Shown: positions 1 to 30,551 of the stretch, one piece after another
Layout of the letters: each line of letters opens with the position of its first letter
Numbering within the stretch: the stretch's first letter is position 1
DNA from: a virus
Taxonomy: Duplodnaviria > Heunggongvirae > Uroviricota > Caudoviricetes
Reading direction: 5' to 3' (one strand)
DNA: 40,224 bases
IMG/VR virus record: IMGVR_UViG_2734482777_000019
Program-made: the position numbers and the translations under genes
Notes under the pieces: generated by a model
What the model was told of the DNA's origin: nothing
Database searches by the model: none
Seen by the model: only the letters and a program-made list of their open reading frames with translations

Positions 1-1158
1 ATGCTCACCGTTAAGCAGATTGAAGCAGCAAAGCCGAAAGAAAAACCATACCGCCTTCTCGATGGTAATGGCCTGTACCTTTATGTTCCTGTATCCGGGA
101 AAAAGGTATGGCAGCTTCGCTACAAGATTGACGGTAAGGAGAAAATCCTGACCGTCGGAAAATATCCGCTTATGACTTTGCAGGAAGCAAGGGATAAGGC
201 ATGGACTGCGAGGAAAGACATCTCGGTTGGCATCGATCCGGTAAAGGCGAAAAAGGCTTCGTCTAACAACAATTCATTTAGTGCGATTTACAAGGAATGG
301 TACGAGCACAAGAAGCAAGTCTGGTCAGTAGGCTATGCAACTGAACTTGCCAAAATGTTTGATGACGACATTTTACCCATCATCGGCGGTCTTGAGATTC
401 AGGATATTGAGCCGATGCAACTGCTGGAAGTAATCCGCAGATTTGAAGATCGCGGTGCAATGGAGCGAGCCAACAAAGCCCGCAGAAGATGCGGCGAGGT
501 TTTTCGTTACGCTATTGTCACCGGAAGGGCTAAATATAACCCGGCACCTGACCTTGCAGACGCCATGAAAGGATACCGCAAGAAGAACTTCCCGTTCCTT
601 CCAGCAGACCAGATGCCTGCATTCAACAAAGCACTGGCAACATTTTCAGGAAGTATCGTATCGCTCATTGCGACAAAAGTTTTACGTTATACAGCCCTAA
701 GAACGAAAGAGCTTCGTTCCATGCTATGGAAGAACGTCGATTTTGAAAACAGGATTATCACCATCGACGCCAGTGTGATGAAGGGACGCAAAATTCATGT
801 GGTCCCGATGTCAGACCAGGTGGTTGAACTTCTCACTAAGCTAAGCTCAATCACCAAACCAGTCTCAGAGTTTGTTTTTGCCGGGCGCAACGATAAGAAG
901 AAGCCAATCTGCGAGAACGCGGTATTGCTTGTGATCAAACAAATCGGCTATGAAGGTCTGGAAAGCGGTCACGGATTCAGGCATGAATTCAGCACGATTA
1001 TGAACGAGCACGAATGGCCCGCTGATGCTATTGAAGTGCAACTGGCACATGCCAACGGCGGATCTGTGCGCGGGATTTACAACCATGCTCAGTATCTCGA
1101 TAAGCGCAGAGAAATGATGCAGTGGTGGGCGGACTGGCTTGATGAAAAGGTAGAGTGA
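1..1158 (+). CDS. int: Tyrosine integrase, P4-type with N-terminal arm-binding domain
   Basis: 385-aa ORF with integrase-like N-terminal arm domain and C-terminal catalytic region (HxxR-like, terminal Tyr); sits directly after the AlpA-like xis across the circular junction. Confidence 0.88.
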   Translation: MLTVKQIEAAKPKEKPYRLLDGNGLYLYVPVSGKKVWQLRYKIDGKEKILTVGKYPLMTLQEARDKAWTARKDISVGIDPVKAKKASSNNNSFSAIYKEWYEHKKQVWSVGYATELAKMFDDDILPIIGGLEIQDIEPMQLLEVIRRFEDRGAMERANKARRRCGEVFRYAIVTGRAKYNPAPDLADAMKGYRKKNFPFLPADQMPAFNKALATFSGSIVSLIATKVLRYTALRTKELRSMLWKNVDFENRIITIDASVMKGRKIHVVPMSDQVVELLTKLSSITKPVSEFVFAGRNDKKKPICENAVLLVIKQIGYEGLESGHGFRHEFSTIMNEHEWPADAIEVQLAHANGGSVRGIYNHAQYLDKRREMMQWWADWLDEKVE

Positions 1159-1474: not shown

Positions 1475-3316
1475 ATGACAGTTACAACAAAGTTCAGAAA
1501 TGACATTAATGGCCTAAGAGCTATAGCTGTTATAAGTGTTGTTTTGTTTCATTTTTCATCTTCTATAATTCCAGGCGGATTTATTGGTGTAGACGTGTTT
1601 TTCGTCATATCTGGATACTTGATGACATCAATTATATTCAGAGGGATAGAATCTAATTCTTTTTCGGTTATTGACTTCCTGAAAGCAAGGGCGAGACGTA
1701 TAGTTCCTGCTCTCGTTGCAGTTGTATTCCTTACACTGATTATTGGTTATATGTTCTTTGAGCCTATGACATTACAGATCATAGGAAAACATTCTGCGGC
1801 AAGTCTAACATTTATTTCCAATATTATTTATCAGTCTGAATCAGGTTATTTTGATGATACATCAAAGCAAAAATTTTTACTGCATACATGGTCGCTATCA
1901 GTTGAATGGCAATTCTATATAATTTACCCGATAGTGTTACTTGCACTGTCAAAGATATTTTCAATAAAAAATCTTAAAATATTTGTTGTTGCGATTGCTG
2001 TTGTTTCTTTTGCATGGTGCATTTACATAACCAGAACTGATCCCGTGTCATCATACTTCAGCATCGCATCAAGAGGTTGGGAAATGATGCTGGGAGGCAT
2101 TGCTTTTCTGTTCCCGTTTAAAGGTAGCGATAAATCAAGACGAGTTTTGGAATCAGCAGGGCTAATATTGATCGCGCTGTCTCTCGCGTTCATGAGCGAA
2201 AGCTTGGCGTGGCCTGGCTACATTGCGTTTATTCCAGTATTCGGGGCCTATATCTGCATTCTTGCTGACAATAAAAGAACCATTCTTTCTGGTAAGATCA
2301 TTGAAAAGCTTGGGCTCTGGTCCTATTCAATATACTTGATCCACTGGCCGGTAATCGTCTTTTGCGAGAAGACGGGAATTGAGTTAAATATTTTCTGGTA
2401 TCTGGCTGGTGTAGTGTCAGCCTCAGCACTACTTTATAGCCTTGTAGAGAAGCGTCGTGGTTATGGATGGGGATTGCTTTTCTGTTATTGTGTATGTCTC
2501 GCAGCCGCTTTGTATGTCAATGTCGACGGGGTAAGTAGTCGCATTAAGAATCCTGATTACCATCTTAATAAAGACCTGTTCCGCCGGGCTTACGAAGGAC
2601 ATTTATGGATGCAGCCTGGAGAGAATGTAGACTACTTCAACGCTACAGAAAAAGACTTTGACTACATCATACTTGGTGACAGCCATGCAAGACACTATTT
2701 CGCTTTCTTCAAACAAAGCGGTCTTAAAGTAGCATCGCTAGCTGCGGATGGTTGTAAAGTTACAAAGCATTTTATGGGGCCGCTAAACTATTCTGAAAAA
2801 CTCAGAAAGATTTGCGAAGGAAGATATAAGAAGGCCGTTGAATTCATTAATGCCCATCCTGGCAAGAAAGTCGTATGGTTGCAAGCGTGGTATACTGGAA
2901 AGGTTGGAAACCCGCTAACGACTGACAATTCTTATAAAAATGATTTCATCAGTGAAATGAAATATTTTCTTGATGATATTAAAGGCTCTAACAGCCAGAT
3001 ATATATTGTTGGTGATACCCAGGGAAGCAAGGAAATCATGTATCAATGCCTGGCATCACAAGACCTTCCTATTAATAAATTATTCAGAAAATGCAATGAG
3101 TTTCAGGATTATATAGAGCCTGCAATGAATAGCAGATTTAAAATATTTGCTGAGCAATATCAAAAAGTTCATTTCGTTGACCCTAGCCCAGCAATATGCA
3201 GTGATGGCAAATGTAGAGTGGTTGATGGAGATATGCCTGTTTACACGGATAACTCTCATCTTACAAAGGTATGGTCAGTTAAGGTTGGTGAATATATCTT
3301 TAGCAAGATAAAGTAG
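1475..3316 (+). CDS. Membrane acyltransferase (acyltransferase-3 family with C-terminal SGNH-like domain), O-antigen acetyltransferase-like moron
   Basis: 613-aa ORF with hydrophobic multi-TM N-terminal two-thirds and soluble C-terminal domain; AT-rich relative to flanks; preceded by AT-rich intergenic region; lies between int and tailspike where P22-like phages carry serotype-conversion genes. Confidence 0.8.
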   Translation: MTVTTKFRNDINGLRAIAVISVVLFHFSSSIIPGGFIGVDVFFVISGYLMTSIIFRGIESNSFSVIDFLKARARRIVPALVAVVFLTLIIGYMFFEPMTLQIIGKHSAASLTFISNIIYQSESGYFDDTSKQKFLLHTWSLSVEWQFYIIYPIVLLALSKIFSIKNLKIFVVAIAVVSFAWCIYITRTDPVSSYFSIASRGWEMMLGGIAFLFPFKGSDKSRRVLESAGLILIALSLAFMSESLAWPGYIAFIPVFGAYICILADNKRTILSGKIIEKLGLWSYSIYLIHWPVIVFCEKTGIELNIFWYLAGVVSASALLYSLVEKRRGYGWGLLFCYCVCLAAALYVNVDGVSSRIKNPDYHLNKDLFRRAYEGHLWMQPGENVDYFNATEKDFDYIILGDSHARHYFAFFKQSGLKVASLAADGCKVTKHFMGPLNYSEKLRKICEGRYKKAVEFINAHPGKKVVWLQAWYTGKVGNPLTTDNSYKNDFISEMKYFLDDIKGSNSQIYIVGDTQGSKEIMYQCLASQDLPINKLFRKCNEFQDYIEPAMNSRFKIFAEQYQKVHFVDPSPAICSDGKCRVVDGDMPVYTDNSHLTKVWSVKVGEYIFSKIK

Positions 3317-5327: not shown

Positions 5328-6206
5328 TCAGTAGTTATGTACTGAAGGAGGCAATTCTTTATTCTTAAGTCTCATCCATGCGGAAAGATTCGTTGGTCCG
5401 TCTGGCTCATTAATATCAACATCTCGTGTGTGGTTTATTAAAACGTCTCTCGCCATTCCGATAACATACGAGAATTCATGACCGTAGTCGTAGCATCTGC
5501 CGGAATAGTTCGATTGAATTTGTTTTAGCGCCGGATACAGTTCGCGGAATAATGCCTGTGAGCGGTTGGCATAATCCCATAACCATACAAAGCTGTTTGC
5601 TTCTTTTGCAGAAAGCTCGTTGGTTTTCTTCTCTTGTTTGCCAATGAACTCACCTTCAAGCACTACCCTGTGGATGTACTCTACGGCCAGCGGGATTTGT
5701 TCAATTGAAAGTTCATCAATGCTGTCAATACCAAAACGCTGATGAACCATATTGTATGCATCGTCATAGCGAAGTCCTTTCTTTCCTACCAGCATGTTTA
5801 CTGCATCGCGTAGCGGTGTTCTTTCCTCAACAGTGGTTTTCTTTCCTTTTACATACTCGCCATGTTTGCGAATTGAAGGCAGAACTTCTGCTGTTACCCA
5901 CTTGCGGAATTTGTGCGGGACTGAACCTTTATTGACTGCATCGCGGCAGCGCAGAACCAATGTATACATACCTGATTCGCTCACAATGCTTAGATTCTGC
6001 TCACCACCAAGGGTGTAACTTAAAGTTACTCCCTTTTCATCGTCATCAAGTGCAGTAAGCGCCTTGCGTGAGTTAGTCAAATCTAAAGCATCACAAACAT
6101 CTTTAGCTACAAACCACGGCTCACCGCACTTGTTGATGACGCGGATTTCACTGTCGCCGAATTTGAAGATGGTGAAATCGTTTTGTGCCTTTGCTATACT
6201 TTTCAT
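5328..6206 (-). CDS. ant: Antirepressor (Bro-N domain family) of the immI region
   Basis: 292-aa ORF with Bro-N-like N-terminus ([16 protein letters not shown]); located directly downstream of arc as in P22 immI. Confidence 0.8.
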
Positions 6207-6274
6207 GTCAATATTTCCTAATCCGATTTGTTGATGCCGAAGCCCTGACTGTTACAGCAGTTGGGGCTTCAACT

Positions 6275-22379: not shown

Positions 22380-22852
22380 ACCTCAATCTCTCTGACCGTT
22401 CCGCCAGCTTCTTTGAATTTTGCAATCAGGTTGTCAGCCTTATGCTCGAACTGACCATAACCAGCGCCCGGCAGTGAAGCCCAGATATTGCTGCAACGGT
22501 CGATTGCCTGACGAATATCACCGCGATCAATCATCGGTAAAGCGCCACGCTCTTTAATCTGCTGCAATGCCACAGCGTCCTGGCTTTTCGGAGAGAAATC
22601 TTTCAGGCCAAGCTGCTTACGGTAGGCATCCCACCAACGGGAAAGAAGCTGGTAACGTCCGGCTGCTGTTGATTTGAGTTTGGGGTTTAGCATGACAAGT
22701 TTGCGAGGGTGATCGGAGTAATCAGTGAATAGCTCTCCGCCTACAATGACGTCATAACCATGATTTCTGGTTTTCTGTCGTCCGTTATCAGTTCCCTCTG
22801 ACCACGCCAGCATATCGAGGAACGCCTTACGTTGATTATTGATTTCCACCAT
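22376..22852 (-). CDS. R: Endolysin R (lytic transglycosylase)
   Basis: 158 aa, essentially identical to lambda R ([51 protein letters not shown]...). Confidence 0.97.
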
Positions 22853-23159
22853 CTTCTACTCCGGCTTTTTTAGCAGCGAAGCGTTTGATAAGCGAACCAA
22901 TCGAGTCAGTACCGATGTAGCCGATAAACACGCTCGTTATATAAGCGAGATTGCTACTTAGTCCGGCGAAGTCGAGAAGGTCACGAATGAACCAGGCGAT
23001 AATGGCGCACATCGTTGCGTCGATTACTGTTTTTGTAAACGCACCGCCATTATATCTGCCGCGAAGGTACGCCATTGCAAACGCAAGGATTGCCCCGATG
23101 CCTTGTTCCTTTGCCGCGAGAATGGCGGCTAACAGGTCATGTTTTTCTGGCATCTTCAT
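22836..23159 (-). CDS. S: Holin S (dual-start holin/antiholin)
   Basis: 107 aa, essentially identical to lambda S107 including the MKM dual start. Confidence 0.97.
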
Positions 23160-23275
23160 GTCTTACCCCCAATAAGGGGATTTGCTCTATTTAATTAGGA
23201 ATAAGGTCGATTACTGATAGAACAAATCCAGGCTACTGTGTTTAGTAATCAGATTTGTTCGTGACCGATATGCAC

Positions 23276-23315
23276 GGGCAAAACGGCAGGAGGTTGTTAG
23301 CGCAACCTCTTGCCG
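23276..23315 (-). terminator. Late terminator tR' (lambda-type), target of Q antitermination
   Basis: Minus-strand sequence ...ggcggcaagaggttg-cgctaa-caacctcctgccgttttgccc matches the 3' end of lambda 6S RNA/tR'. Confidence 0.75.
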
Positions 23316-23401
23316 CCCGCTTTCACGAAAGTCATGTGTAGAAGGCCGCAGCGTAACTATCACTGATGAATTCAGGATAGCCAGTGGCTACGGCTCAGTT
23401 A

Positions 23402-23477
23402 TGGTGCTGGTTAACGGACTTGAACCGCTACCCATTCGCTTACAAGGCGACTGCTCTACCATTGGAGCTAAACCAGC
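23402..23477 (-). tRNA. tRNA-Thr (anticodon UGU)
   Basis: 76-nt cloverleaf GCTGGTT..GCTC/GAGC D-arm, anticodon loop CTTGTAA, T-arm GGTTCAAGTCC, acceptor AACCAGC, discriminator A, encoded CCA; one mismatch at the base of the anticodon stem. Confidence 0.7.
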
Positions 23478-23482
23478 ATATT

Positions 23483-23557
23483 TGGCGGGACAGCGTGGAC
23501 TCGAACCACGATAAGAAGGTTAACAGCCTTCCGTAATGACCTTTATACGACTGACCC
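23483..23557 (-). tRNA. tRNA-Asn (anticodon GUU)
   Basis: 75-nt cloverleaf: acceptor GGGTCAG/CTGTCCC (1 mismatch), anticodon stem GAAGG/CCTTC, loop CTGTTAA, T-arm CGTGG-TTCGAGT-CCACG, encoded CCA; loop and T-arm match E. coli tRNA-Asn. Confidence 0.75.
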
Positions 23558-23620
23558 AAATAAAAAAAGCCACCGTTGCAACTTAAGAGTCACTAACGGC
23601 AGCTTACCCTCTAATTATGG

Positions 23621-24139
23621 CTAAATGGCTAATTGCATGTCAAGGTTTTTAACAGCAACATGCTTAACTTTCTCAACACGTTTACGCATTTTGAAAGCAT
23701 TTTGCATTGGTTGGTACAAAACAAATAATGACGCTTTCAGGATGTCGTCAATTTCGTTTCTACAGGTTGCCAGTGAAGGTTTTCTCCATCCCTCGCCACC
23801 ACGTCCACACATCTTGCGTGGCTTTGCAGTCGCGTGATAGTAGGATGCAATTGCTCGCTTAGATGAACCATGAGCGTAGTAGCTGAGGAGGATGCCAAAG
23901 GCTTTTTTGTCAATGTACATGACGGAATCGACGACCTGAGAAATCAACATTCCATCATCATCATTGCACATTGGCCTTGTCATAACTCTTCCCGGCTCTA
24001 CGCTCTCCATGAACTTCGCTATTACGCTGCTCATGCGCTTTTCCAGACGACCTGAATAAACCCATGCGCCCCACAGTTCAAGCCAGCCATTCAGCCACTC
24101 GTGCTGCTCTTTGGTGAGGTTTAGTTCTCTTATGCCCAC
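23621..24139 (-). CDS. Q: Late-gene antiterminator Q (non-lambda type)
   Basis: 172-aa ORF at the canonical position between ninI and the pR'/tR'/lysis region; Cys-containing; assignment mainly by synteny. Confidence 0.75.
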
Positions 24140-24801
24140 GCGCCTTCTCCCTGTACCTGAATCAATGTGAGGTTTCCGCAGAACACTGCGCCGGTATCGA
24201 TATACATCTGGTTGGCAAACTTGAGTGGTTTCACTGCTGGCGTATGACCAAAGATGAACGTGTCAGCTCCTTTGATTTCTTTCACGATCCCGTCTTGTGA
24301 GTTGCTGATTCGTTCGCGGTTCCAGATTACCTGCTGATGATCAACTGGCTTTCCAAATTCGTATTCGTCACAAGGATAATCGGCGTGGCAGATGACATAT
24401 TTTTTACCTTCGCTCACCAGTTCGATGATTAACGGAAGTTCATCTGCTTTATGGGCAAGAGCTTTAGCCAGAATTTCTTTGTCGTAATCGAGATTAAAGA
24501 ACCAGCCACCGCCATTAAACAGCCAGTGATTGACGTTTCCACGCTCTGATAAGCCATCAATCATCATTTGCTCATGGTTTCCACGTACAGCTCGGAACCA
24601 GGGGAATGTGATTAATTCCAGACATTCGACGTTCTCTGTACCGCGATCGACCAAATCGCCAACCGAGATAAGCAGGTCTTTTTTGGTGTCGAATCCCATC
24701 GTCTCCAGTTTTTTCATCAGGTTCGTGTAGCATCCGTGCAGATCGCCAACTACCCAAATATTTCGGTATTTGCTGCCATCAATTTTTTCGTAATAGCGCA
24801 T
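24130..24801 (-). CDS. ninI: Ser/Thr protein phosphatase (lambda NinI-like)
   Basis: [25 protein letters not shown]...GNHE metallophosphatase motifs, near-identical to lambda PPase; start set to the internal Met of the longer track ORF. Confidence 0.9.
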
Positions 24802-24985
24802 CTCTTTCACTCCATCCGCGGTGAACCATAAGAACACCGTTGACGATAGCGTGTCTTTTCCCTTCTTTATCGCCAGTGTATTTTCTGACCGTGTTGCGAC
24901 TACAGTTCAGTATTCTGGCTACCTCGGTCTGATTTTCATATGCCTCAACGAGCATGTCAGGAATGGTTTTTACTGTGAACGTCAT
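24779..24985 (-). CDS. ninH: NinH
   Basis: 68 aa [36 protein letters not shown]..., near-identical to lambda NinH. Confidence 0.9.
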
Positions 24986-25587
24986 GCGGCCTCACTTCTG
25001 CTGTTTCGCAGGTCTTTAAGTTTCTGCTGATACTTCGCCTTGATCGCCCTGCATTCTTCGACAGTCCAGCGATGGCGGTTATGGTTCGATTCGATTTCGT
25101 CTACTGCTTCCTGCCCGATGCGGTTAATCAGTTCGACGCGATACGGAACGAGATTTCCGCTTTTGTGCTGGTTGCACACCACGCATTGCTTGTGAATATT
25201 GCGTTCATCAAATCGGAGTTGAGGTGTCGCAGCAGTTGTCCGGTAATGTCCGGCATCCCACTGAGCAGACGTGAGCGTTCCGCACGAGATACATGGTAAG
25301 TCGCGGTCTCTTTCTCTGATGAAGGCGTTTACGGCTTGTTGGGCTTGTTTAATCCAGTAACTGCGGGGCTTTAAGGCGAGTTTTCGAATCTTAAGTTTAT
25401 CTTTCTGTTTCTGCTCCTCTCGTCGTCGTTTCTTCTCTGCTGCCTTTTCCGCTTTTTCGCGTTCTTTGCTTCGTCGTTCGAGTGCTAATTGAGTTCCGTG
25501 TTCCGGGCTGCACCACCACTGATTTGAGAATGCCGGGTGAAACCATTCCTTACAGATTTTGCATTTCCTTCGCGCTGGTTTAGCCAT
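24982..25587 (-). CDS. ninG: NinG (Rap recombination endonuclease family)
   Basis: 201 aa, N-terminal Cys-rich region and Lys/Arg-rich segment, closely resembles lambda NinG. Confidence 0.9.
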
Positions 25588-25943
25588 TAAGCAGCCTCCC
25601 CTGTTACTTTCAGCATTCCGTTATCGAGCAGCTTTCTGGTCAGCCACTGTTGACCACGCCCGGTGATTTTTGTGGTGAACGATATCTGTATTCCGTGATT
25701 TGTATTGACCGCTGTTTCTTTCACTGTGAAATAGCCGCGCTCCATATATTCCTGCATTGGCACATTTCGCCGGGAACCTGAAGCAATAAGGATTTTGTGA
25801 TCGCGCATCCACGCAAACAGTTTGTTTGGACCAATACCAACAACCTTTGCAAAGTTTCCAATCAAAATTCCGCTGGCCTCGCCAACGCGATCGGCAAACT
25901 CAACTTTAGGTGCGGCAATTGCGAGCTGGTTTTCCAGTTGCAT
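25587..25943 (-). CDS. KilAC-domain antirepressor-like protein (C-terminal part of a Rha/Roi-type protein)
   Basis: 118-aa ORF; starts 1 codon after an in-frame TAG that ends the upstream Rha-domain ORF. Confidence 0.6.
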
Positions 25944-25946
25944 TTT

Positions 25947-26309
25947 CTACTCAGCAAGATCAGCAGCAAGGCGCAACGCTTCTGGTAGCGTTTTGGGGAT
26001 ATTAACCGAAGTTTCTTCAAGCTCTCGCCAACGGTCAACAAGACGAGCGGTGAATTCCGGCGACAACTGGGCTACAACGACAATACTGTCTCGCTTACCT
26101 TGTTCGCCCTCAAAAACGTAAGCCTCTACGCCACGAAGTAATCCTAAGTTATTGATTTTTTCGAAAACCACCATTGGGGGATTTCGGATCACACCTCGAG
26201 CCGCCAGTCGTTCAATAGATTGTTTCACCTTGTCATGACGACTTCCCACCAACTCAGCGATTTCAATGCTTGTCATTTTGATGGCATTGCCATTCATTAA
26301 CTCATTCAT
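25947..26309 (-). CDS. Rha-family regulatory protein (N-terminal domain)
   Basis: 120-aa ORF, Rha-like N-terminal domain; same reading frame as the downstream KilAC ORF, separated by a single amber codon. Confidence 0.6.
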   Translation of the reverse strand: MNELMNGNAIKMTSIEIAELVGSRHDKVKQSIERLAARGVIRNPPMVVFEKINNLGLLRGVEAYVFEGEQGKRDSIVVVAQLSPEFTARLVDRWRELEETSVNIPKTLPEALRLAADLAE

Positions 26310-26478
26310 CGTCTTCTTCCTCGTACATTGAGCTATTCGGATCGCTCATCAGTTCTGCGCAGCAGTGCTCACACACGTGAACTTCCAGCACATGCAGCTT
26401 CTGACCGCAGTTAGCGCACGTTAAAGCTCGCTCGACGCTTTCTTTCTGGTATTGAAGGGATTGGGATGGGCTAAGCAT
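26302..26478 (-). CDS. ninF: NinF
   Basis: Not in ORF track (58 aa): [58 protein letters not shown], near-identical to lambda NinF; start overlaps upstream stop (TAATG). Confidence 0.8.
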   Translation of the reverse strand: MLSPSQSLQYQKESVERALTCANCGQKLHVLEVHVCEHCCAELMSDPNSSMYEEEDDE

Positions 26479-26843
26479 TATTGGATTCTCTGCATCATGA
26501 GAAAGACAATCATGGCGGCGCGGAGGGGATTTTCATGTATAGCTCGCTTAGATTTACAGTAGGCCACACCGCGTGCACCCCACTCGTCTTCATCGAGATT
26601 GATAATGCTAATCCTGTATTTTTCAATAATCGGCCATGCGTCTGCTGGGTTTGCGCATGGGTTAAAGGAACCGCGCTCAACTTCTACTTCAACTGCGTCT
26701 CCGTTTACAATGTCTCCCTCAAATGAGACAAACACCATATCGCCATTCTCACCTTCTTTGTAATCCGGTGATCCGTTATGAATGGCTTCGAATACCGCCA
26801 CGTTAATTTCAAAATCACTTAACTGTGAATAATCCATTGTCAT
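26478..26843 (-). CDS. Hypothetical nin-region protein (NinX-like)
   Basis: Track ORF trimmed to the Met whose ATG overlaps the ninE stop (ATGA). Confidence 0.55.
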
Positions 26844-27016
26844 TTCCTCGCACGATGTCTTAGCCACCGGATATCCCACAGGTGAGCCGTGTAGTTGAAG
26901 GTTTTTACGTCAGTTTCTTTTGGGATTGGCTTGGGTTTATTTCTGGAGCGTTTCGTTGGAAGGTATTTGCAGTTTTCGCAGATTATGTCGGTGATACTTC
27001 GTCGCTGTCTCGCCAC
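26840..27016 (-). CDS. ninE: NinE
   Basis: Not in ORF track: GTG start preceded by AAAGGAGGA; (M)[57 protein letters not shown] closely matches lambda NinE. Confidence 0.75.
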
Positions 27017-27152
27017 ACGTCCTCCTTTTCCTGCGGTAGTGGTAACACCCCTGTTGGTGTTCTTTCACACCGGAGACACCATCGATTCCAGTAAGGCTGT
27101 CATGGTCGAAAGCGATCGTCCTCCTTTCGCTCTCCACATCGATAACAGTGCT

Positions 27153-27743
27153 TCATGCGATCACCATTTTGCATGGTTTAATCGCCATGCCGGGAGCCAG
27201 TTCAAAATCGGAGTCGCACTGATTTCCCCACATATCCCACCCGGTCACTTTGTCGCGGCTAAATAACTCACAGCGCGGCACGTCGCCAAGCAACTTAGCT
27301 AACATGTCTCTTACGATCGGTGGTTTTGCACTGTGCTCCATTCTCGGTGCGGTAAAGTGCTGGCATATTGAAGCGTCCATTCTCTCAGGTAACCGCCCTC
27401 GAACGGCAAACAAGCAATCCTCGCTATTTGCCCGGGTCATATGCCCCATTCCGATCGCACTGTTGCCTTTGTGCTTATTGGTTTTGTGCCAAGTAAAGCC
27501 TTTCATAGTCATCAACCTGAATCCCCACGCCTCAACTACCTTTAGCGCTTCGGCTGGCTGTGTCGGCACCCACCACATCGCTAACAAGCAAGATTCTGGA
27601 TCCGCTAAATCCCATACTGGCAGTCGGCAAATGTCCTGAACATTCATAACATCGTATTTATGTCCAGCACCGCGATTGCCATCGTTGGCTTTGTCGCGAT
27701 ATTGCCAAGGCGGATCTGCGTAAATAAGTCGGTATTTGTTCAT
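27153..27743 (-). CDS. DNA N6-adenine methyltransferase, MT-A70 family
   Basis: 196 aa with the DPPW catalytic motif (YADPPWQY) near the N-terminus. Confidence 0.85.
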   Translation of the reverse strand: MNKYRLIYADPPWQYRDKANDGNRGAGHKYDVMNVQDICRLPVWDLADPESCLLAMWWVPTQPAEALKVVEAWGFRLMTMKGFTWHKTNKHKGNSAIGMGHMTRANSEDCLFAVRGRLPERMDASICQHFTAPRMEHSAKPPIVRDMLAKLLGDVPRCELFSRDKVTGWDMWGNQCDSDFELAPGMAIKPCKMVIA

Positions 27744-28183
27744 GCAGCTTTATCTCCCCATCTCGCTTTCCACTCCATAGCCAGTCGCGCTTCGTCTGAC
27801 CACTTAACGCCACGCTCTGTACCGAATGCCTGTATAAGCTCTAATAGCTCCGCAAATTCGCTTACACGCATCCTGCTGGTTGACTGGCCTATTACCACAA
27901 AGCCATTCCCGGCAAGGTTAGGAACAACGTCCTGCTGCTTTAATGCTGCGGTAAACACACACTTCCAGCTTTCTGCATCCAGCCAGCGCCCATGCCATTC
28001 AACCTGACGCGAAACGTCACCAAGGCAAGCCCAAAGCTTCCGATTTTGGTCTAAGCTGCGGTTGCGTTCCTGAATGGTTACTACGATTGGTTTGGTTGGG
28101 TCTGGAAGGATTTGCTGGATAGCTTGAATGGCGTTCTGCTGATGGATGGGGCTTCTTAGTTCAAACGTTAGTTTCCTCACCAT
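27740..28183 (-). CDS. ninB: NinB (Orf recombination mediator)
   Basis: 147 aa, near-identical to lambda NinB (…PIHQQNAIQAIQQILPDPTKPIVVTIQERNRSLDQNRKLWACLGDVSRQVEWHGRWLDAESWKCVF…). Confidence 0.95.
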   Translation of the reverse strand: MVRKLTFELRSPIHQQNAIQAIQQILPDPTKPIVVTIQERNRSLDQNRKLWACLGDVSRQVEWHGRWLDAESWKCVFTAALKQQDVVPNLAGNGFVVIGQSTSRMRVSEFAELLELIQAFGTERGVKWSDEARLAMEWKARWGDKAA

Positions 28184-28325
28184 TTACGCTCCTGTAATCG
28201 TCAAGTGCAGCTGCAATAGTCTCTATCGGGTCATGGTCTTGCCCGATAATCTCATTTACGTTTTCATCTTCTTCCACACCGAAAAAGAATCGCAGGGCTA
28301 ACATGATTTCTTCGTATGCGCTCAT
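28161..28325 (-). CDS. Small hypothetical protein (54 aa)
   Basis: Not in ORF track; ATG 2 nt after the upstream stop, preceded by GGAGTGAG; ends overlapping the ninB start. Confidence 0.35.
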   Translation of the reverse strand: MSAYEEIMLALRFFFGVEEDENVNEIIGQDHDPIETIAAALDDYRSVNGEETNV

Positions 28326-28327
28326 AC

Positions 28328-28567
28328 TCACTCCTTCACTTTGATTCCGGCGGCGCGGATGGCGCTCTGCACCTCGCTTACATACAGATATTGGGTTCGC
28401 CCACTATGCATGGTAAAGCTTTCAGGAAGCTCAATCTCGATAGCTGCGCGAGACTTTCTCCAAAACTCCCAGCAAGTGTCTGCATAATCCTGATTGGGAT
28501 ATTCTTCCAATTCCCAGCCAGTTAATTCTTCAAAAGCTTCGGCAAACTGCTTTCTTGATTCGTCCAT
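28328..28567 (-). CDS. Hypothetical acidic protein
   Basis: 79-aa ORF in tight early-operon array. Confidence 0.55.
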   Translation of the reverse strand: MDESRKQFAEAFEELTGWELEEYPNQDYADTCWEFWRKSRAAIEIELPESFTMHSGRTQYLYVSEVQSAIRAAGIKVKE

Positions 28568-28578
28568 ATCAATCCCCG

Positions 28579-28779
28579 TTATGACAGGTTAATTTTCAAC
28601 CAACCCTTCCCACGCACATTTGCAACAAGCCCTTTCTTTCTCAGGTATTGCATTCGGCGATCGATGGTTTCGATATACATTCCATTGCTCCGCCATTTAA
28701 GCCAGATATCAAAAACAGGTGTTGGTCTTTCACTCAGCATTGAAAGAATGTTTTGATCTAATTTTTCGTACTTGCTCAC
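28579..28779 (-). CDS. Hypothetical protein (possible winged-helix)
   Basis: 66-aa ORF, start overlaps stop of upstream gene. Confidence 0.55.
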   Translation of the reverse strand: MSKYEKLDQNILSMLSERPTPVFDIWLKWRSNGMYIETIDRRMQYLRKKGLVANVRGKGWLKINLS

Positions 28780-29102
28780 AAATACCCTCTCTCACTTAAT
28801 CGCGCCCATGCTTCGTTAAACTCTTCTCGGGTTGCGCCGAATTTTCTTTCTTCAAACATCATGCATTCGCTGATGTCTCCCCATGACTTTGGTCGCTTTT
28901 CAGCGAACAGATCATCCCATTCGAATACCCAGCGGCCTGATTTTCGGTAGTGGTAAATGGTCAGCCATGTTGTGCTGTTCGCTGGATACCCATAGAGAAC
29001 TTCGACTTTTTGATCACGGTCTTTATGCTTTTTCAGAAGGATAAAGCCAGCAACCAGCGAAGCTCCGGCAAGAATGATTATTGGAATTTGCCAGTCAGCC
29101 AC
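28776..29102 (-). CDS. Hypothetical membrane-anchored protein
   Basis: 108-aa ORF with single N-terminal TM segment (IPIIILAGASLVAGFILL). Confidence 0.55.
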   Translation of the reverse strand: MADWQIPIIILAGASLVAGFILLKKHKDRDQKVEVLYGYPANSTTWLTIYHYRKSGRWVFEWDDLFAEKRPKSWGDISECMMFEERKFGATREEFNEAWARLSERGYL

Positions 29103-29120
29103 ACTTCCCTCTCCCCCAAA

Positions 29121-29149
29121 TAAAAAGGCCTGCGATTACCAGCAGGCCT
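29121..29149 (-). terminator. Intrinsic terminator (or attenuator) downstream of the helicase gene
   Basis: Minus-strand hairpin ggcctgc-tggtaatc-gcaggcc followed by TTTTTATTT. Confidence 0.45.
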
Positions 29150-29174
29150 GTTATTAGCTCAGTGATGTAGATGG

Positions 29175-30551
29175 TCATACGTCAGCCCCTTGTGCATATC
29201 GTCTGCCACGCGCAGCAGGTGCATTTGATGCTGTGCAAATCTGTCTGGCTTCATCCTGGTCACATGCAACAAAGTGTCCGTTACAGAACCGCTGGTAAAC
29301 CGTACCAAGTGAGCCAAAACGGTTTTTCGTCACGATGATTTCAGCAAATGGCGCGGCGCTACTGTTCTCGTCATATACCGCTTCCCGATAGAGCATGATG
29401 ATTGAGTCTGCGTCCTGCTCAATGCTTCCTGAATCACGCAAATCTGCGTTTGTCGGGCGTTTGTTTGGTCGCTTCTCAACATCGCGAGAAAGCTGACTTA
29501 GGGAGATAACAGGCGTTTTCAGGTCTTTCGCCATCGCCTTCAGGCTTCCTGAGATGTGAGCAATTGCGAGGTCGTTGCGATCTGCTTTCGGCTTCTCAAT
29601 CAGGCCAAGATAATCCGCCATGATGAGTGACAGGTTTGGATTTTCCTGTTTGTGCCGTTCTGCGATTGAGCGTATTTCTTCGACCGATAACCGCGAGGCA
29701 TCGACTACCCATACATCCAAATCTGCAAGCTGACTCATACCGTTAGCAACACGCGCCCAGCCTTCGTCATCCATCGATGCAGGATTTCGCAGTACGCTAA
29801 CCGACATCCTCCCGGCGTTGGCAATGCTTCGCTCTGCAATCTGCAATGCGCTCATTTCCATTGAGAAAATCAATACCCCGCGCCGGACGTCAGAACCAGG
29901 AATAACGCGGCTTGCAACGCCTTCGGCAATCTTCAGCGCCAGTTCGGTTTTCCCCATGCCAGGACGAGCAGCGATTATCACTAGGTCTTCCGCGTTCATC
30001 CCTCCGGTGATGACATCAAGTTCTTCGATTCCGGTCTTCAGGGTATCTGACTCTTCTCCGTTCCTCAGACGCCTGTCAAGCGTGTCAGTGTAGTCAGTGA
30101 TGATTTCCCCTAACCGTACAGGTTTAACCTCGTCACGGGGCTTTCTGATGGCTGAAAGACGCTTTACAAGCTCGTCCATCGCCTGACTCGATGTATCGAT
30201 GGTTCCGCTCTGAATTGGTTCACGCATTTCATCCATGATTTCCAGCACCAGACGGCGGTGATAGTTATCCGCGACCATTCCGGCATATCCCTTCAGGTTT
30301 GCGGCACTCGGGCAGTTTTTGCTGGTCATCAGGATTGACGTGAAATGCTCCTCTCCGCACGCCTCGGCAACCATCAGCGCGTCGATTAGGTTTCTGTTTC
30401 TCGCCTGCTTGCGGATAACTTCGAAGGCTTTCCGGTAGAGCGGAATTGAAAACGCTTCCGGCTCCAGCGTTGCCAGAACGTCGCTGGCGGTTGGTGTTAA
30501 TCCACCAATCAGCAGGCCACCGATAACGCTCGCTTCGATATCCTGTCTCAT
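29175..30551 (-). CDS. Replicative DNA helicase (DnaB family; P22 gene 12-like)
   Basis: 458 aa with Walker A ([12 protein letters not shown]) and DnaB-like C-terminal RecA fold motifs. Confidence 0.9.

Follow-up and report, generated by a model that had tools for sequence, protein, structure and literature searches.

An interrupted gene in the nin region

On the minus strand of the window, by which we mean the whole 40,224-nucleotide stretch of viral DNA that was analysed, positions 25587 to 26309 hold two open reading frames that share one frame and together comprise 241 codons with a single internal stop. The upstream frame, ORF-N (25947 to 26309), consists of 120 codons followed by an amber TAG (25947 to 25949) and encodes a Rha-type HTH domain (residues 12 to 99) and the first part of a linker. 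A lone AAA codon (25944 to 25946) then precedes an ATG (25941 to 25943), which lies 3 nt past the stop and is the sole possible restart codon. From this ATG the downstream frame, ORF-C (25587 to 25943), runs for 118 codons to a TAA stop and encodes a KilAC/ANT domain. The minus-strand reading thus bears out the first-pass annotation of this DNA, which had described a Rha frame and a KilAC frame divided only by TAG-AAA and a following ATG. Immediately downstream lies ninG (24982 to 25587, minus strand), taken from the list of open reading frames and matched to PF05766 (NinG) on an identical contig, L007.

Both domain assignments were examined against Pfam. ORF-N aligned over residues 12 to 99 with the full length of PF09669 (Phage_pRha; profile positions 1 to 91), with a score of 29.6 bits (E=1.1e-6) that falls 0.3 bits under the curated gathering threshold of 29.9 bits; other N-terminal alleles of the same gene are recorded as matches to this family. 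ORF-C matched PF03374 (ANT, KilAC) over residues 4 to 106 and profile positions 1 to 106 of 108, and its score of 115.5 bits (E=1.9e-33) lies above the gathering threshold of 25.3 bits. When the two frames are numbered as one protein, the matches span residues 12 to 99 and 126 to 228, which places the stop in the inter-domain linker. The two products also fall into consecutive parts of one PHROG family, phrog_63, with ORF-N occupying columns 122 to 242 and ORF-C columns 250 to 368, and ORF-C additionally covers the entire 121-column profile of phrog_9438. Searches for a sequence relative in the PDB and for an NCBIfam model found none, and an AlphaFold single-sequence model of the intact relative P0030 was unusable (mean pLDDT 37.3).

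Judged by its similarity and its position, the split gene is roi, the nin-region DNA-binding gene known from HK022, HK620 and Stx phages. The closest intact relative is the roi gene of E. coli ST131 MB1159 (98.9% identity, 8 of 723 nt differing), and the roi genes of HK629 and HK620 align over 723 of 723 nt without gaps at about 93% identity. Since ORF-N and ORF-C are gaplessly collinear over 723 nt with an intact gene of 240 codons, a chance juxtaposition of two unrelated frames is excluded. On the contig identical to the window the nin-region genes are ordered NinB, MT-A70, NinX, NinF, roi, NinG, NinH, phosphatase and Q, and the same order is found in HK620 and HK629. HK022 Roi and its homologues in HK620, HK629, CUS-3 and the Stx phages thus share with the window allele the slot between ninF and ninG, the length of 723 nt, 92 to 99% nucleotide identity, and the combination of a Rha-type HTH N-domain with a KilAC C-domain. 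They differ from it at codon 121, which reads CAG in the homologues and TAG in the window, hence the two annotated fragments. With the collinear similarity and the nin-region slot of the family, and without its uninterrupted frame of about 240 aa, the locus is best classed as a mutant or pseudogene allele of roi.

The intact gene is common. At least 80% of roi is covered in 214 phage records, including HK620, HK629, HK633, HK75, CUS-3 and many Stx phages, and in about 971 E. coli records from 968 complete genomes. In all records inspected it forms a single 240-aa frame between ninF and ninG/ybcO, variously named 'DNA-binding protein Roi', 'anti-repressor Ant' or 'phage antirepressor KilAC domain-containing protein'. 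These phage and E. coli records uphold the earlier statement that Rha and KilAC domains are usually fused, as does published work in which Rha and KilA-C fusions are widespread (PMC6145125). Intact roi shares this multi-domain architecture with regulators in which Bro-N, KilA-N or Rha is fused to KilA-C. The term 'antirepressor', under which the locus was first described, is retained only in part: the Rha and KilAC domain content stands, while the functional term is a domain label and the gene itself is roi.

We also scanned species-representative genomes, where 12 loci were found, too few to give a base rate of roi disruption. The N-domain of Roi always lay within a single frame, being fused to KilAC in four loci (L016, L017, L019, L025), and one Symbiopectobacterium (L026) carried a decayed roi copy. 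In Pantoea, Yersinia, Buttiauxella and Serratia (L021, L022, L024, L027) the N-domain was fused to an unrelated C-domain in a frame of 235 to 276 aa (about positions 1001 to 1710 in each locus), and these non-KilAC fusions all switch right after …DRWRELEE. The end of this motif marks a natural boundary between modules, which falls near residue 100 and some 20 codons before the amber codon. No two-gene homologue with the boundary seen in the window was present among the phage, E. coli and species-representative records inspected; a search for homologues of ORF-C yielded for the most part pseudogene fragments or frames cut off at contig ends and is uninformative about architecture. Two loci have a full-length gene with a second, truncated Rha-type N-domain directly upstream of it, namely those in Yersinia vastinensis (L022, 926 to 1327 with 1240 to 2034) and in E. 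coli XH992 (L004, 1501 to 1596 with 2000 to 2725), which suggests allele replacement by insertion, with a remnant of the old 5' end left behind.

Ancestral codon, rarity and spread of the amber allele

The first-pass annotation had proposed an alignment to intact homologues as the way to see whether the TAG replaces a sense codon. In this alignment the TAG stands opposite CAG (Gln121) in MB1159, HK620 and HK629 and in 7 of 7 further CAG-bearing loci examined. The difference is a single base at gene position 361 (window position 25949), which is C in MB1159 and T in the window, so that CAG has become TAG. A recent nonsense mutation, one of the three possibilities originally raised, is therefore what the alignment recovers: a sense codon replaced in an otherwise intact and collinear roi. 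The codons that follow belong to the same gene. The context of the ATG, …AEQKMQLENQ…, is native, and QKMQLENQ is also found in two intact alleles (L001, L003). The ATG after the stop is the pre-existing Met123 of Roi and not a new start. Met123 is not conserved among roi alleles, as the residue is Ala in L002 and P0030, and both HK629 and P0030 read …DQKAELEKQ….

The amber allele is rare. The TAG probe, 55 nt long with the T as base 28 so that every 28-mer megablast seed spans it, had no match in either 5,426 complete E. coli genomes or 50,697 phage records, while the same probe carrying C found 652 places in 608 complete E. coli genomes. Given these 652 CAG places against no TAG place, together with the single 240-aa frames described above, homologues are not encoded as two genes split at this point, the condition that the first-pass annotation had named as its refutation. 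In addition, an exact scan for a 25-nt pattern of the TAG allele (CTTGCTGAGTAGAAAATGCAACTGG) yielded no match in GTDB species representatives, IMG/VR or JGI metagenomes. The allele was detected only through exact-protein look-ups in Logan and in NCBI draft assemblies. These look-ups produced contigs from other samples with the identical TAG (L007/L015, L010, L012, L013): one of them, assembled by Logan from SRR23828509, matches window positions 22587 to 29309 with 100% identity, and the same Glu-TAG-Lys-Met junction is present in three other contigs, from NCBI GCA_045755715.1, SRR27724265 and ERR6099714. Because four further assemblies, each independent, carry this TAG too, it is a real, inherited base and not a sequencing error in one assembly.

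Comparison of the amber copies indicated that the allele has moved between phages. Two of the contigs (L010, L012) match the window without a single difference between 26008 and about 23500, a minus-strand block of about 2.5 kb that comprises the 3' two-thirds of roi with the TAG, ninG, ninH, the phosphatase gene and Q. Upstream of 26009, in the first 300 nt of roi, the same contigs carry 50 mismatches and an N-terminal allele of the HK620 type, and the genes upstream of roi also differ from those of the window. The four other amber assemblies have this block in common with the window at 100% identity, and in three of them the N-terminal allele of roi is a different one. All amber copies have the private synonymous markers 543A and 606T in common, and one further contig (L014) carries the same C-terminal haplotype with CAG, differing by one base across a 422-nt block. 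The simplest history compatible with these patterns is a single recent C>T event on this known haplotype. Recombination, with its crossover no more than about 60 nt ahead of the stop, then joined the amber block to a different N-terminal allele, and homologous recombination within roi carried the allele into at least two phage backgrounds.

Having survived at least one recombination event and being found in several samples, the amber allele is not strongly counter-selected. A mildly advantageous change would account for its persistence equally well; with 100% identity throughout the shared block, the allele is too recent to reveal selection. The amber mutation is also not the only lesion in this gene. 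Independent roi lesions included frameshifts in three contigs (L005, L006, L009), nonsense mutations in two (E50* in L008 and R73* in L011) and the replacement of the N-terminus in L014, and all six retain an identical 118-aa C-terminal reading frame. This set was ascertained through the exact 118-aa product; it thus shows recurrent breakage of roi, not selection to keep the KilAC half.

Search for restart and read-through signals at the junction

Signals that might direct translation across or beyond the stop were sought at the junction and throughout the window. Pairing of the 17 nt upstream of Met123 with the 16S anti-Shine-Dalgarno (anti-SD) sequence amounts to -2.2 kcal/mol, compared with medians in the window of -2.1 kcal/mol for 223 internal in-frame ATGs and -6.0 kcal/mol for 34 gene starts. 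The start of ninG, which overlaps the roi stop (TAATG), is preceded by the SD sequence GGGGAGG with a pairing energy of -11.2 kcal/mol; since ninG has its own strong SD, expression downstream should not need ribosomes that cross roi. Reinitiation in prokaryotes is strongly SD-dependent, and ribosomes can scan locally after termination and restart (PMC5972666). In having a nonsense codon closely trailed by an in-frame AUG, the locus shares the layout of the classical amber restarts of lacI and T4 rIIB. It differs from these in that the SD of Met123 does not rise above background, so that an inefficient restart is to be expected.

No suppressor tRNA is encoded in the window, whose only tRNAs are tRNA-Thr(tgt) and tRNA-Asn(gtt), and no Rfam recoding element was found there, the Rfam matches being confined to a sar RNA and the two tRNAs. 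The RNA at the junction shows no unusual structure (fold z=+0.61 against shuffled controls), and no promoter-like site for ORF-C was detected between 25400 and 26600. The window contains no other coding-strand gene pair that is split by an in-frame TAG. We accordingly rejected a phage-borne suppressor tRNA and an internal promoter for ORF-C as explanations, and likewise a genome-wide reassignment of TAG, given the absence of a second TAG-split pair and the ordinary stop codon usage (18 TGA, 13 TAA, 4 TAG). The features that define programmed read-through (a conserved stop with a stimulatory context, structure or tRNA) and those that define translationally coupled cistrons (a conserved stop-start junction with an SD-like element) were both looked for and are lacking here, so the roi allele belongs to neither class. 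With neither a suppressor tRNA nor a read-through signal in the window, the earlier suggestion of a suppressor-dependent read-through product finds no support, and the alternative of two deliberately separate cistrons fares no better, the ATG being a native Met123 without an evolved SD.

We therefore favour, with a probability of about 0.88, the explanation that the dispensable roi gene of a P22-like lambdoid E. coli prophage has recently undergone a single C>T nonsense mutation, and that the mutation has been spread by recombination. The allele is a mutant of a known gene and of an ordinary kind, not a designed two-gene arrangement or a recoding signal.

A different reading, which we regard as unlikely, is that the gene is functionally split, a DNA binder with the HTH alone and a separate KilAC protein being produced by stop-restart at UAG-AAA-AUG and this state being maintained or favoured, for example because it relieves the inhibition of lytic growth that Roi exerts under limiting IHF. 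With the stop placed in the linker that joins the two Pfam domains, and an ATG just beyond it, the two products could conceivably fold independently. Several samples and at least two or three mosaic backgrounds carry the amber allele, and other genera join the N-domain to a different C-domain near residue 100, where the modules meet and the gene has a natural point of exchange. In Phi11 Gp07 the KilA-C domain has activity on its own (PMC5944126), and more distant phages have a stand-alone KilAC family of about 120 aa, phrog_9438, to which ORF-C is a full-length profile match; in contrast to that family, the stand-alone form in the window arose when a point mutation interrupted a fused gene, and it is without translation signals of its own. 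The AUG itself is a pre-existing internal Met with background SD pairing, whereas reinitiation needs an SD, and Met123 varies among roi alleles. Furthermore, complete E. coli genomes hold no TAG against 652 CAG places, the records surveyed include no two-gene homologue with this boundary, and the complete identity of the shared block marks the allele as too young for visible selection. A related idea, to which we give a slim chance, is adaptive uncoupling, whereby the HTH fragment would keep the Roi/IHF site, a little KilAC would be made by stop-restart and IHF dependence would be altered; if true, this would explain the recombinational spread of the allele into several phage backgrounds.

Two further explanations concern the decoding of the stop and the base itself. 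Conditional synthesis of full-length Roi, with UAG decoded as Gln by a host supE-type tRNA or through a favourable context, would suit the nature of the change, as CAG>TAG is the class of amber mutation that a Gln-inserting suppressor returns to wild type. The base after the stop is A, and an A in this position is a context favourable to suppression. Yet the only tRNAs of the window are those for Thr and Asn, the junction has neither an Rfam recoding element nor a noteworthy fold, no other gene in the window contains an in-frame TAG, and TAG is absent from the roi genes covered by the complete-genome, phage, GTDB, IMG/VR and JGI surveys, which makes read-through of this kind highly improbable. 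That the T could be a base-calling error in the source record is suggested only by its being a single-base difference from the CAG haplotype. This reading is effectively refuted by the recurrence of the same base in three Logan assemblies and one from NCBI, and by the different 5' roi allele that accompanies the TAG in some of them.

Predicted products and phage context

If the allele is, as we favour, a recent nonsense mutation, its consequences for Roi can be outlined. The C>T change converts CAG (Gln121), in the linker between the Rha-type HTH and KilAC domains, into TAG, and in a non-suppressor host translation would end after residue 120 and release an HTH-only fragment. The KilAC half would be made only at a low level, by termination and reinitiation at the pre-existing Met123, which should be inefficient because this codon has no proper SD, and full-length Roi would arise only by rare background read-through. 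In a supE host, insertion of Gln at the UAG would restore exact wild-type Roi. The allele would accordingly be either neutral or a loss of function, and it is probably tolerated because roi is dispensable for phage growth. Clerget and Boccard reportedly found in 1996 that HK022 phages mutated in roi are viable and become able to grow on hosts deficient in IHF, and are said to have placed an IHF site inside HK022 roi. A match to the IHF core consensus, AATCAATAACTTA, is present at 26145 to 26157 (minus strand) inside the N-terminal half of the window roi; it is a pattern match only, the consensus occurring twice in the 40-kb window where 2.3 matches are expected by chance. This candidate site would fit the one reported for HK022 roi.

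For annotation, the result means that the two frames are best recorded as one roi pseudogene or amber allele instead of a separate 'Rha family regulator' and 'KilAC antirepressor'. The locus also provides a small, clean case in which a point mutation can be traced to its ancestral haplotype and then followed as it moved between P22-like and lambdoid phages. Since Gln-inserting suppressors would restore the exact wild type, studies of Roi, whose function remains poorly understood, could use the allele as a naturally occurring conditional mutant.

The window as a whole is a complete-looking P22-like prophage. It encodes an integrase, an AT3-SGNH acyltransferase, a tailspike with a P22 head-binding domain, immI Ant with sar RNA, P22 coat, portal and terminase proteins, lysis genes, Q, the nin region, a DnaB-type helicase and a cI-like repressor, and, as a mosaic, it is related to CUS-3 and phiv205-1, with about 95% identity over about 60% of its first 24 kb. 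The sar antisense RNA (6208 to 6274, plus strand; RF00262, 65.6 bits) adjoins the Ant gene (5328 to 6206, minus strand; phrog_245, E=8e-112). The presence of sar RNA together with a P22-type Ant indicates a genuine immI antirepressor module, separate from roi.

The integrase gene (1 to 1158, plus strand) is followed by a gene for a 613-aa fusion of AT3 acyltransferase and SGNH domains (1475 to 3316, plus strand), which looks like O-antigen-modifying, putatively serotype-converting cargo beside the attachment end. The genes for tRNA-Thr(tgt) and tRNA-Asn(gtt) stand in tandem at 23402 to 23477 and 23483 to 23557 (minus strand), between the Q and holin genes, and occupy the position where Stx phages carry tRNAs. 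Finally, the nin region contains a gene for an MT-A70-family adenine methyltransferase (27153 to 27743, minus strand) in the slot that is filled by a DNA cytosine methyltransferase gene in MB1159, a difference that exemplifies the exchange of nin-region cargo.
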